40,865 bases of DNA from sequence record PQ785851.1. One strand, written 5' to 3'. Of the stretch, positions 16,236 to 40,865 are shown piece after piece; position 1 is the first letter of the stretch; each line of letters begins with the position of its first letter. Source of the DNA: a phage. Under the pieces are notes generated by a model that saw only the letters and a list, made by a program, of their open reading frames with translations, searched no databases and had not been told where the DNA came from. The position numbers were made by a program, and so were the translations under genes.

Positions 16236-16616
16236 TTATTTGGTGTGGAAGTGCGCTGCTTTATTTGCAAACTCATCAGTTGCTGAGCCGATTGACCAAG
16301 GTTTAGTCATTACTTCATTAATTTCTTTTTGGCTAACATCAGCCTCGCGATTGAATTCTTTGTTAACAACCTTAACAATCAGAGTGTAAATTATAACATT
16401 ACGTTCGCATTCAATTTCTGAAGTTTTCATGATTGCATCTCTCATCTCATGAGCATCAATTGCACTAACTTTTGATAACTCACCATGAACGAGACTGAAG
16501 CTCATGTTCTTACACATGTTTACAGCTTTTGCCATGTCCATTTCTTTCTGTTTAGTTTCACCAATGTTACAACCAGTTAAAGCAAGTGCGATTACTGCGG
16601 CGATGATAGCTTTCAT
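16236..16616 (-). CDS. lipoprotein moron inside the tail gene cluster
   Basis: 126 aa; signal peptide MKAIIAAVIALALTGC with lipobox LTGC; has its own promoter-like module upstream, which follows a terminator. Confidence 0.6.
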   Translation of the reverse strand: MKAIIAAVIALALTGCNIGETKQKEMDMAKAVNMCKNMSFSLVHGELSKVSAIDAHEMRDAIMKTSEIECERNVIIYTLIVKVVNKEFNREADVSQKEINEVMTKPWSIGSATDEFANKAAHFHTK

Positions 16617-32280: not shown

Positions 32281-32616
32281 ATGTTTCTACTCGACGTATA
32301 CAAGTTCTGCGAAGGATACAAGAACTTCAACCGCCAGCAACTGGCAAGATTCATCTACAAGCACAAGGATTGTGCAAGGATGGCTAAAGCTGCGGGGGTT
32401 GATGAAAGATATTTTGCATCGAGTTGCTCGAAGGAGTTTATGGCGAGAATGCTTACGGCTGGGTATCTTGATGGAGTTAATGGTGTGTACTGGTCTAAAG
32501 GCTCGAGCAAAAGGCCATTCCAGTTTGAATTTATGAGCTTTAAAGGTAAGTCTAGTGCTTATGTTAATGAGATGATGAATATAGCAACCATGAGTGACGA
32601 AGAATTGTTTGCATAA
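32281..32616 (+). CDS. hypothetical protein
   Basis: 111-aa ORF starting 4 nt after the 527-aa gene. Confidence 0.35.
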   Translation: MFLLDVYKFCEGYKNFNRQQLARFIYKHKDCARMAKAAGVDERYFASSCSKEFMARMLTAGYLDGVNGVYWSKGSSKRPFQFEFMSFKGKSSAYVNEMMNIATMSDEELFA

Positions 32617-32646
32617 AAATAGCCCCATTACGGGGCTTTTTTGTTT
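32617..32646. terminator. bidirectional rho-independent terminator between convergent operons
   Basis: Hairpin AGCCCC-atta-CGGGGCT with an A-run before and TTTTTTGTTTTT after. Confidence 0.6.
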
Positions 32647-33014
32647 TTCCTGAATATTACCAAAAGCAGAATGATGATGATGCACAACATAATTCCACTT
32701 CCAACCCACGGGATTGCAGAAGAATCATTGTTTGTGATTTCAATCTTCTCAGCTGTGATTGTTGACGCTTTGATTGAGTTATCAGAAGTCTTCTTACCGC
32801 TTGAGCTATCAAGAGTGTCAACATTAGAGTTCTTCAACTCAGCCTTTGCATTGGAACTTGAATCAACCTTGTTTGTCAGACCTACGCCAACCTTATTGTT
32901 CTCCGCTCCAGCCTGGGCGCTAATCTCTGGCTTACTGCCAATCAATCCGGTCAGTGCTGATGTTGCCGAACAACCAGAAAGCAGAATCACCGCAGCAATT
33001 AATACAACCTTCAT
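32628..33014 (-). CDS. unimolecular spanin (lipoprotein with C-terminal transmembrane anchor)
   Basis: 128 aa; N-terminal lipobox LLSGC; C-terminal helix IPWVGSGIMLCIIIILLLVIF then RKNKKAP; last gene of the lysis cassette. Confidence 0.6.
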   Translation of the reverse strand: MKVVLIAAVILLSGCSATSALTGLIGSKPEISAQAGAENNKVGVGLTNKVDSSSNAKAELKNSNVDTLDSSSGKKTSDNSIKASTITAEKIEITNNDSSAIPWVGSGIMLCIIIILLLVIFRKNKKAP

Positions 33015-33496
33015 TTACCAACCCCACTTAAGCATAATTTTATTTCCTCGTTGCGCCTGTTCACGAGCCCCTTGACGACAACCTTCTTACCATTCTTGGT
33101 TATCTTGTTCCACATCCCGAGAGCCTTGCAACCCTCCTCAATCTTACCTTGGTTAATAAGCATTACTGCCGTGGACTTCCTCATTGCAGAGCCGCCAACG
33201 TTATAACTAAAACTGATTAATGCCGCTCTTGTTTCTGGAGAGATAGGGTATGTCACCGCATCCTGAACATACTTCCCATGAATCTGAATGTGCTTCTCAA
33301 GCAGATTCCGGCACTCCCTGTTACTGTACCTCTTACCCCATACAACATCAGGGCCAGTAATGCCAGCACAGACCGTAGGGATTCCTGCAATGTCCATGTA
33401 AGGCTTGTACTCAACGCCCTCTACAAGCTCAATAATCGGCGCTGCGATGTATATTGCCGCTGCCGTCGCTGCACTAATTACCAGCTTCTGCTTCAT
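33011..33496 (-). CDS. SAR endolysin (lysozyme, P21 R-like)
   Basis: 161 aa; N-terminal signal-anchor-release helix LVISAATAAAIYIAAPII; core EGVEYKPYMDIAGIPTVCAGITG...SFSYNVG...INQG. Confidence 0.8.
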   Translation of the reverse strand: MKQKLVISAATAAAIYIAAPIIELVEGVEYKPYMDIAGIPTVCAGITGPDVVWGKRYSNRECRNLLEKHIQIHGKYVQDAVTYPISPETRAALISFSYNVGGSAMRKSTAVMLINQGKIEEGCKALGMWNKITKNGKKVVVKGLVNRRNEEIKLCLSGVGK

Positions 33497-33711
33497 TACT
33501 TACTCCTAATATTGATAGCTTTTTTTAAATCTCCTGACTCCAGCGCCTTCCTGATTGCCTGGCTATCCTTAAACTTCCAGTAAGCTCCCCACAACCCGAA
33601 AACAACAAGAGCTATAAGGCTGATTATTGCGATTGTCATTTGACCAGTTGCGGCGCCAGTTACAGCCGCCCCACCTGTTGATGCCGTAGCGGCGTTAATT
33701 ACTTCCCTCAC
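33496..33711 (-). CDS. pinholin-type holin
   Basis: Likely GTG start at 33711 with RBS AAAGGTGA; two hydrophobic segments; track ORF extends to a TTG at 33789. Confidence 0.5.
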   Translation of the reverse strand: MREVINAATASTGGAAVTGAATGQMTIAIISLIALVVFGLWGAYWKFKDSQAIRKALESGDLKKAINIRSK

Positions 33712-33784
33712 GTGATCACCTTTAAATCCTAATTTGTCAATAGATAGTGTAAATATAATACAGTAGGCAAGTGTGGATTGTAAG

Positions 33785-33815
33785 CACAAAAAAGGGGAGC
33801 CAAAAGGCCCCCCGC
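33785..33815 (-). terminator. putative terminator upstream of the lysis cassette
   Basis: Imperfect hairpin GGGGGGCC-tttt-GGCTCCCC followed by a T-run on the minus strand. Confidence 0.35.
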
Positions 33816-34057: not shown

Positions 34058-34102
34058 ATTATGCCGCATTTCTACGGCATTGGTTATGCAAAAAGTGCTA
34101 TT
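34058..34102 (-). promoter_or_regulatory. promoter-like module, conserved 22-bp element family (copy g)
   Basis: Minus strand reads AATAGCAC-TTTT-TGCATAACCA, 17 bp, CATAAT, 6 nt (caccgc), ATCGAAACTAGAC; overlaps the stop of the upstream gene. Confidence 0.45.
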
Positions 34103-35231
34103 AGCTAAACATTTCTGGGCGACAAGTGAATCGACCAATCTCGCCGAATTTAGGGCTGTAGATTATTACAGACGCCTGGCGATAAGAGCGATAACCACCG
34201 TTTGCGCTGTAAGCATCTTTCGCACCAAGCTGACCATGAGACTCATCAATACCCAAGTTACCTTCTGTAATCGTTTGATGGTGATAATGGCCCGAATGGG
34301 TATAAACATATTCTGATTCACCAAACGCCTTGCGGTGGTCACGTGCCAAAGTTGATAAGCGAGTATCTGGCTTGCGAAGCTCATGACCATGACAGTATCC
34401 AAGAAGCGTCTTGCCAAACTGAGTTACGTGCAACGCAGCAGGTGAAGCATCAACATTTACCCTTGGCTCATCCATATAGAATGCCGCCATTGCTGCACGC
34501 AACCAAATCATACCCGAAAGGTCGTGGTTACCTGGAATAATCTGAACTTCAACTTCTTTATGCTTATCAAGCATCAGGCTAATTGCTCGCCGAGTCGCTC
34601 GAACAGCTACGTAAACAAGCTTATGGTATCGGCTATCCTGGTCCAGCACATGATGACTGGTAGGCGTAACAGCTTCCAATCCATCTGAGTGGAGGAAGTC
34701 GCCACCAATCAGCAATACTGCTTTCTTAGAACAAGGAGCCTTAGCAACAGCGTAATCAAAATAATCATTAAGGACACGCTCTGCGATTTCAGTACTGTAA
34801 TTCTCCCCGCATTCTGCATGGTGCGCCATTGCTCCAATGTGCATATCAAAAACAGGATAAAGACTTAAAGTGTCTTCCCACAAACCAACTCTTAATGCTC
34901 TAGGCTTCTCGCGCGGCAATTCATCAGTAAGCGCTTCAATAGCCTGAAACATCATCTCTTCTTGCTTCTCTTTGTCGATGTCAGACTTAACCCACTGCTG
35001 CTTAATCTCACCATCAGCACCAATAAGACTTGATACACCCTTAACTGCATAACCTTGAGGAATAAGGTTGCTTACATCTCTACCGTGCCCCTCTCCAGCC
35101 TTAGCTAGCTTACTACGACGCAATTCAACATTGCGAATATTCATACCGTACTTCTCTGCTATTGCTTTGTTAGTCATGCCGCTCGCTAGTTCTTCACTAA
35201 GCTGTTCGTTTGTTATTTTTGCAGTTGCCAT
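34101..35231 (-). CDS. HTH-fused metallophosphoesterase (calcineurin-like)
   Basis: 376 aa; N-terminal HTH-like GMTNKAIAEKYGMNIRNVELRRSK; phosphoesterase motifs DMHIG, GGDFLHSDG, GNHD, CHGH, HSGHYH. Confidence 0.6.
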   Translation of the reverse strand: MATAKITNEQLSEELASGMTNKAIAEKYGMNIRNVELRRSKLAKAGEGHGRDVSNLIPQGYAVKGVSSLIGADGEIKQQWVKSDIDKEKQEEMMFQAIEALTDELPREKPRALRVGLWEDTLSLYPVFDMHIGAMAHHAECGENYSTEIAERVLNDYFDYAVAKAPCSKKAVLLIGGDFLHSDGLEAVTPTSHHVLDQDSRYHKLVYVAVRATRRAISLMLDKHKEVEVQIIPGNHDLSGMIWLRAAMAAFYMDEPRVNVDASPAALHVTQFGKTLLGYCHGHELRKPDTRLSTLARDHRKAFGESEYVYTHSGHYHHQTITEGNLGIDESHGQLGAKDAYSANGGYRSYRQASVIIYSPKFGEIGRFTCRPEMFS

Positions 35232-40470: not shown

Positions 40471-40865
40471 ATGGCAATTTATGACGCTGGAACAGCCAGC
40501 CTGGCAGCTAACGGCACTGTAACTGGTGTTGGGACTACCTGGATGGCTCCGCTTACGCTGATTCGTGTTGGCGCCACTATTGTTTTCAAGACTGAACCAG
40601 TGAAGATTTACACTATCTCTGAAATCATCAGCGACACGCAGATTAATGTTTACAACCCTAATTCTGAAACCGTTGCTGCTGGAACTGGTTACGCCATTCT
40701 TCTTCATGATGGTATTACAGTTCAGGGTTTGGCACAGGACGTAGCCGAGACGCTTAGATTTTATCAGTCAAATAATTATGTGAGCGGTGGTGATGATGGG
40801 AATGTAAAATTAGAGAACGGAGGAACAGGAGCTAGTACAGCACCTGAAGCGCGTAACAACCTCGG
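40471..40865 (+). CDS. tail fibre-like protein, N-terminal part (continues into 1..743 across the circular junction)
   Basis: ATG at 40471 with RBS GGAG; ORF runs off the window end in the same frame as the open frame at the window start. Confidence 0.5.
   Translation, partial: MAIYDAGTASLAANGTVTGVGTTWMAPLTLIRVGATIVFKTEPVKIYTISEIISDTQINVYNPNSETVAAGTGYAILLHDGITVQGLAQDVAETLRFYQSNNYVSGGDDGNVKLENGGTGASTAPEARNNL

Follow-up and report, generated by a model that had tools for sequence, protein, structure and literature searches.

The phage genome of sequence record PQ785851.1, analysed here over its full length of 40,865 nucleotides (hereafter the window), encodes a three-gene lysis cassette within positions 32628–33789. 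We interpret this cassette as the standard T1-type lysis module of a T1-like coliphage, consisting of a holin, a phage 21 R-like signal-anchor-release (SAR) endolysin, and a T1-type unimolecular spanin (u-spanin), which would act by the pinholin/SAR-endolysin/u-spanin route (estimated probability, about 0.93). A cassette of holin, endolysin, and spanin had been proposed at this position in an initial annotation made from the sequence, and homology, synteny, and the literature all bear out that proposal. The cassette is already known, as near-identical genomes are annotated likewise and the module has been described: Eremina et al. (2026; PMC13164509) counted a module of exonuclease, holin, endolysin, and spanin genes in 508 of the 522 genomes of the Drexlerviridae. 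With the module so widely catalogued in the family, the significance of the assignment lies mostly in correct annotation.

The genome belongs to the Drexlerviridae (Braunvirinae, Christensenvirus-like), a T1-like affiliation that the initial annotation had not recognized, and is a complete, circular assembly of ~40.8 kb, because bases 1–49 of the window are identical to bases 40817–40865 and one tail-fibre open reading frame (ORF) spans both ends. In a megablast search, the lysis region matched 87 phage records, nearly all of them Escherichia siphoviruses of the Drexlerviridae/Braunvirinae, with phages TR1 (97.2 per cent identity) and IME542 (93.3 per cent) as the top matches. At least 80 per cent of the lysis stretch is present in 78 phage records, many of which carry the labels holin, endolysin or SAR endolysin, and u-spanin.

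The holin, endolysin, and lipoprotein ORFs all lie on the minus strand and exactly where the initial annotation had placed them (Table 1). The holin and endolysin genes overlap in the sequence TAATG, and the endolysin and spanin genes overlap in ATGA. Because of these overlapping junctions and the flanking terminators, the three genes form a tightly packed unit that is coupled in translation and delimited on both sides.

Table 1. Features of the lysis cassette and of other loci discussed in the text (coordinates refer to the window).
Feature	Coordinates	Strand	Evidence or remarks
Holin, T1 gp13 family, 71 amino acids, GTG start	33496..33711	-	phrog_2877; T1 gp13 homology
SAR endolysin, 161 amino acids, glycoside hydrolase family 24 (GH24)/phage 21 R-type muramidase	33011..33496	-	PF00959; phrog_7; 3hde; T1 gp12
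Unimolecular spanin, T1 gp11 family, 128 amino acids	32628..33014	-	phrog_1804; TR1 u-spanin identity; T1 gp11 homology
Shine-Dalgarno sequence of the holin gene, AAAGGTGA	33716..33723	-	4 nucleotides upstream of GTG; kept in relatives
TTGACA hexamer	33735..33740	-	In presumed 5' leader, 23 nucleotides before GTG
Promoter candidate: -35 TTACAA (33783..33778), 17-nucleotide spacer, -10 TATTAT (33760..33755)	33755..33783	-	Promoter scan and conservation
Rho-independent terminator, GGGGGGCC-TTTT-GGCTCCCC and T-run	33794..33813	-	Stem and T-run kept in relatives; parts cassette from DUF7244/exonuclease unit
Bidirectional rho-independent terminator, AGCCCCGTAATGGGGCT	32621..32637		Spanin stop codon in loop; also ends convergent plus-strand gene 32281..32616
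DUF7244 (SH3-clan) protein, 58 amino acids	33840..34016	-	PF23896, 3.4e-29; phrog_4788
Exonuclease gene	34101..35231		phrog_704
Cor superinfection-exclusion lipoprotein, 73 amino acids	4775..4996	+	phrog_1119, 5e-27
Predicted lipoprotein, 126 amino acids, lipobox LTGC	16236..16616	-	Tail module, between tail tube and tail assembly chaperone genes

The closest relative, TR1 (OP087522; Drexlerviridae, Braunvirinae, Christensenvirus), is 97–98 per cent identical in DNA over the lysis region and has the same neighbouring genes on both sides. Its genes are labelled holin, lysozyme, and u-spanin; the 71-amino-acid holin and the u-spanin are 100 per cent identical to those of the present phage, and the endolysins of the two phages differ by two amino acids. 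The TR1 record departs from our reading in annotating the holin from an upstream TTG, as a protein of 97 amino acids. Across the whole genome, the two phages are related in a mosaic fashion, with segments that range from 77 to 99 per cent identity, and one genome is circularly permuted relative to the other.

The same arrangement is found in phage T1, in which gp13, gp12, and gp11 (71, 162, and 133 amino acids, respectively) are collinear with the present cassette, have overlapping junctions, and are labelled pinholin, SAR endolysin, and u-spanin in the curated record, which cites PMID 30135120 for the function of gp11. T1 also has a terminator before the holin gene and another that overlaps the stop codon of gene 11. 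Compared with the protein sequences of the T1 record, the identities are 56 per cent between the holin and gp13 (ungapped across all 71 residues), 47 per cent between the endolysin and gp12, and 38 per cent between the spanin and gp11 (over 124 amino acids, 4e-27; the tblastn match to T1 is 4e-12). The two phages differ in that the T1 holin gene starts with ATG instead of GTG and in that its leader lacks the element ATTGACAAAT discussed below.

The last gene of the cassette encodes a lipoprotein with a C-terminal transmembrane helix, which had been taken at the outset for a T1-like u-spanin. Its lipobox, its helix, and its homology to gp11 all uphold that identification. The protein matches phrog_1804 (Rz-like spanin) of the PHROGs database over its full length (1.6e-45); Pfam has no spanin family, and NCBIfam returned only a sub-threshold match to the N-terminus. 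The lipobox, MKVVLIAAVILLSG directly before C15 (LLSG/C15), corresponds to LSGC in T1 gp11, and Ser16 occupies position +2 as it does in gp11. In Lol sorting, lipoproteins that have no Asp at +2 go to the outer membrane. The middle, periplasmic part of the protein consists of 87 residues without Cys (gp11 has no periplasmic Cys either), and the C-terminal helix (WVGSGIMLCIIIILLLVIF, residues 103–121) is followed by the basic tail RKNKKAP. These are exactly the features by which Kongari et al. (2018; PMC6139136) define the u-spanin class. Outer-membrane disruption and complementation of lambda Rz-am Rz1-am have been demonstrated for T1 gp11 itself (PMC6139136). The periplasmic part expected of a gp11-type spanin comprises about 85–90 residues without Cys and is rich in beta strands. 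The 38 per cent identity to gp11 falls just below the 40 per cent family threshold of Kongari et al., and the two proteins are linked via closer members such as that of phage ACG-M12, which is 64 per cent identical to the spanin of the present phage and is included among their u-spanins (PMC6139136). Among 10 aligned family members, which come from siphoviruses and from podoviruses including those of Klebsiella and Pseudomonas, G14 and C15 are invariant, the motif KPEISAQAGAENxK is mostly kept, and every C-terminus contains a hydrophobic stretch with an Arg behind it. In total, relatives of the spanin are encoded in 1120 phage records.

Two further observations bear on the u-spanin identification, and it stands on both. 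The C-terminal helix is strongly hydrophobic, with a Kyte-Doolittle hydropathy over 19 residues (KD19) of 2.91 and a summed Hessa dG of -4.35. A single-sequence AlphaFold2 model (mean predicted local distance difference test score [pLDDT] of 55.8) places a helix at residues 103–124 and supports only the terminal helices. Moreover, no separate spanin pair exists elsewhere: scans of the complete genome for ORFs with a lipobox and for ORFs with an N-terminal membrane anchor brought up no pair of the Rz/Rz1 type, and at the cassette there is no embedded or overlapping lipoprotein ORF. The only other lipoproteins of the genome are Cor and a 126-amino-acid protein of the tail module, neither of which has an inner-membrane spanin (i-spanin) partner.

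Homologues of the u-spanin also occur in podoviruses of the Autographiviridae, namely Klebsiella phage NER40 and Pseudomonas phage YMC11/06/C171_PPU_BP, where the gene order is spanin–holin–endolysin. The u-spanin family has therefore passed from one type of phage to another, and the order of the cassette genes has changed in the process.

The endolysin gene, whose ATG overlaps the holin stop codon and is preceded by AGGAG, encodes a protein that matches the Pfam family Phage_lysozyme (PF00959; 9.5e-34, 116.9 bits) and phrog_7 (1.5e-47). Among solved structures, it comes closest to RrrD (4zpu) and to the lysozyme chains 3hde and 3hdf (4e-26 to 1.5e-25), the latter two of which we take to be phage 21 R. 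In the match to 3hde (1.5e-25), residues 11–158 of the endolysin are aligned with residues 19–163, including the E-8-D-5-T motif, so that E26, D35, and T41 correspond to the R21 catalytic triad of E35, D44, and T50. The N-terminus, MKQK-LVISAATAAAIYIAAPII, presents a weakly hydrophobic stretch behind K2 and K4; residues 5–23 have a KD19 of 1.85, a summed dG of +3.9, and 47 per cent Gly, Ala, Ser, or Thr, and Pro20 follows the only Ala-Ala. There is no Cys in residues 1–42. The N-terminus (residues ~5–22) thus fits an uncleaved SAR segment of the R21 type, as opposed to the disulfide-caged type of P1 Lyz, with non-cleavage being suggested by its sequence. The initial annotation had described a SAR helix joined to a P21 R-like lysozyme core, and the N-terminal composition, the PF00959 match, the 3hde alignment, and the catalytic triad agree with that description.

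The holin belongs to phrog_2877 (1.1e-35 in the PHROGs search); neither Pfam nor NCBIfam has a holin family or model that matched. The holin reading frame extends back to a TTG at 33789 (33789..33496, 97 amino acids), and an internal GTG at 33711 yields the 71-amino-acid form, for which a start at GTG with its own ribosome-binding site had been suggested from the outset. That suggestion is confirmed by where the protein profile begins, by the length of T1 gp13, by ATG codons in relatives, and by stop codons upstream in relatives. Specifically, residues 28–97 of the long ORF align with positions 2–71 of the 71-position PHROG profile, and the codon at 33709..33711 is ATG in phages phiA2-1, ES, BEK1-1, JeanPiccard, and T1; the GTG is common to the present phage, TR1, and IME542. 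We conclude from these comparisons that the 71-amino-acid form is right and that the 97-amino-acid holin call in the GenBank records of TR1 and IME542 is wrong and should give way to the 71-amino-acid GTG start.

Three alternative readings of individual genes were considered. The holin could instead be the 97-amino-acid product from the TTG at 33789, given that the frame is open from there and that two GenBank records use this start. However, the TTG falls within the terminator's T-run and lacks a Shine-Dalgarno sequence, both the PHROG profile and T1 gp13 begin at the GTG, four relatives and T1 carry ATG at that codon, and an in-frame stop interrupts the upstream extension in phiA2-1 (three codons upstream) and in ES (17 codons upstream); we therefore give the long form hardly any credence. 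The N-terminus of the endolysin could likewise be a cleavable signal peptide from which a soluble enzyme is secreted, as K2 and K4 followed by a hydrophobic stretch are seen in any Sec signal. Yet this stretch is rich in Ala, Thr, and Ser and only marginally hydrophobic, and the sole site resembling Ala-x-Ala (I-A-A) directly precedes Pro20. A Pro at +1 blocks signal peptidase I. In addition, the catalytic Glu26 lies only three to four residues past the hydrophobic stretch, as in SAR enzymes, and the homology to the 3hde chain and to T1 gp12, an annotated SAR endolysin, is full-length and includes the N-terminus. A cleaved signal peptide is therefore improbable. The 128-amino-acid lipoprotein, finally, might be a superinfection-exclusion or other envelope protein and not a spanin, since the phage lipoproteins Cor and Llp act in exclusion and the present genome has a cor gene of its own. 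This reading has next to no probability in view of the homology along the whole protein to T1 gp11, itself able to complement lambda RzRz1 (PMC6139136), of the position of the gene at the end of the cassette and in translational coupling with the endolysin gene, and of the retention of the C-terminal membrane helix across the spanin family; moreover, if the lipoprotein were discounted, the genome would be left without any spanin.

The membrane topology of the holin is less settled. The protein comprises a Gly/Ala/Thr-rich N-terminal segment (residues 4–23), a strong membrane helix (residues 25–45), and a basic C-terminal tail. Of the two helices in the initial description of this holin, one is clearly present, because residues 25–43 are the only segment above a KD19 of 1.0 (peak, 2.35); the second, at residues 4–22 (VINAATASTGGAAVTGAAT), is only a possibility, with a KD of ~0.9 and a summed Hessa dG of ~+6.7. 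The holin could thus be a single-pass protein of N-out/C-in orientation, with its Gly/Ala/Thr-rich N-terminus outside the bilayer; its holes might be of either kind, small or large, and the other two proteins would act as in our main reading. Several points speak for such a protein, and the first three are also among the weak points of the overall assignment, which nothing contradicts: the N-terminal segment fails the standard hydropathy cut-off; the T1 record itself gives gp13 '1 transmembrane domain' and predicts an N-out and C-in orientation; a BLASTP comparison of the holin with phage 21 S21 revealed no similarity (E 1.8); there is no dual-start motif (no second start lies near the GTG, the next being Met25); and a single-sequence AlphaFold2 model, at a low confidence (mean pLDDT of 70.6), consists of one continuous helix from residue 2 to 58, without a hairpin. 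Two further weak points concern other parts of the cassette: the periplasmic part of the spanin, presumed to be beta-rich, has a pLDDT below 50 in the single-sequence AlphaFold model, and the promoter assignment given below is one by consensus and conservation only. The promoter scan gave five promoter-like sites, a number in line with the 3.8 ± 1.8 of shuffled sequence.

In contrast, the first transmembrane domain (TMD1) of the verified S21-68 pinholin is equally weak in hydrophobicity on the same scale (KD 0.64, dG +6.4; the S21 sequence used in the comparison is 100 per cent identical to the phage 21 record). The N-terminal segment is also the best-conserved part of the holin within Drexlerviridae, and its small residues form a ladder of the small-xxx-small kind (S11-A15-G19-G23), a pattern characteristic of membrane helices that pack together. 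Two membrane segments have been predicted for the T1 and TLS holins (PMC11447400), and the partner of the holin is a SAR endolysin, for which depolarization suffices. On balance, we regard the single-pass topology as a rather unlikely, though still substantial, alternative to a holin with two membrane segments. In a single-pass holin, the N-terminal segment of phrog_2877 proteins could act outside the membrane or at its surface, for example as a periplasmic timing or oligomerization element; we consider this a doubtful possibility which, if true, would make the single-pass holin a new topology class paired with SAR endolysins. As the holin is without similarity to S21 and belongs to a different PHROG (phrog_2877), the label 'pinholin' is best understood as a reasonable functional analogy by context and not as family membership.

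Upstream of the holin gene, the TTGACA hexamer that the initial annotation had noted as -35-like is indeed present, but it cannot be the -35 box of the holin gene because it lies only 23 nucleotides from the start codon: at a spacing of 17 nucleotides, GATCAC would have to serve as the -10 box, and the first transcribed base would lie within the coding sequence. One such hexamer is within chance, as the window contains 17 copies, compared to 30.5 ± 5.6 expected. A better promoter candidate, likely on the basis of sequence, is TTACAA-17-TATTAT, situated ~20 nucleotides further upstream and listed by the promoter scan as CTTACA-18-TATTAT; transcription from it would start near 33748. In an alignment of eight phages that includes T1, positions 1, 2, 5, and 6 of the -10 box (T86, A87, A90, and T91) and the TT of the -35 box (T63 and T64) are invariant.

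The sequence ATTGACAAAT (33732..33741, minus strand), which contains the TTGACA, is perfectly kept in seven of seven Braunvirinae despite nearby insertions and deletions and is absent from T1. It was rejected as a repeated regulatory motif, as its single exact occurrence in the genome is below the chance expectation. A leader structure that masks the ribosome site was also rejected, given that the leader RNA (33750..33670) folds no better than shuffled sequences (z = -0.14). The GTG start could reduce holin synthesis and delay lysis, and together with the ATTGACAAAT leader element it may tune holin translation in this clade, setting the timing of lysis.

Upon the gene anatomy, homology, synteny, and conserved motifs, and the lack of an Rz/Rz1-type pair, all of which are directly observed, a lysis pathway can be modelled, with every mechanistic step, above all the small 'pinholes', extrapolated from work on T1 gp11 and phage 21 S/R. 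The three genes would be transcribed as one unit between the two terminators and translated in a coupled manner. The endolysin would be exported by the host Sec system and held inactive in the inner membrane by its weakly hydrophobic N-terminal SAR helix. The spanin would be lipidated at Cys15 and, with Ser at +2, sorted to the outer membrane, while its C-terminal helix would stay in the inner membrane, so that each molecule would span the periplasm through the peptidoglycan mesh. Meanwhile, the 71-amino-acid holin would build up in the inner membrane until, at a set time, its holes collapse the membrane potential. By analogy with phage 21, depolarization would free the SAR helix and release the endolysin, which would refold to the active muramidase (E26/D35/T41) and degrade the wall. 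Loss of the wall would then let the spanin join the inner and outer membranes, disrupting the latter.

The individual components relate differently to the better-known lysis systems. With respect to phage 21, the endolysin is a true homologue of R21 (40 per cent identity) that shares its E-8-D-5-T triad and a SAR segment without Cys, unlike P1 Lyz. The holin resembles S21 in its size of 71 amino acids, in its hydropathy pattern of a marginal segment and then a strongly hydrophobic one, and in the position of its gene next to that of a SAR endolysin, but it is unrelated in sequence and lacks an antiholin made from a dual start. The spanin of phage 21 is of the two-component Rz/Rz1 kind. The u-spanin has the same task as lambda Rz/Rz1 and the same finished topology, with an outer-membrane lipid anchor and an inner-membrane helix connected across the periplasm (PMC6139136); it differs from them in being one polypeptide, in lacking a coiled-coil i-spanin and periplasmic cysteines, and in showing no sequence similarity. 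According to Kongari et al. (2018; PMC6139136), almost all spanins of the T1 gp11 family are encoded in cassettes together with a pinholin and a SAR endolysin, as is the present spanin in our interpretation.

Between the exonuclease gene and the upstream terminator of the cassette lies the gene of the DUF7244 protein. Of 522 Drexlerviridae, 188 encode a standalone SH3-clan DUF7244 protein beside the lysis module, and an accessory lysis role has been proposed for it (Eremina et al. 2026, PMC13164509). In the present phage, such a role appears doubtful from the sequence, because the protein has no export signal and a terminator parts its gene from the holin gene.

Elsewhere in the genome, Cor is the only other clear lipoprotein, and it is not an outer-membrane spanin (o-spanin). 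The predicted 126-amino-acid lipoprotein of the tail module matched no PHROG or NCBIfam family and, among 50,697 phage records, is found only in phage TR1 (96.5 per cent identity). One possibility is that it represents a rare moron for superinfection exclusion.

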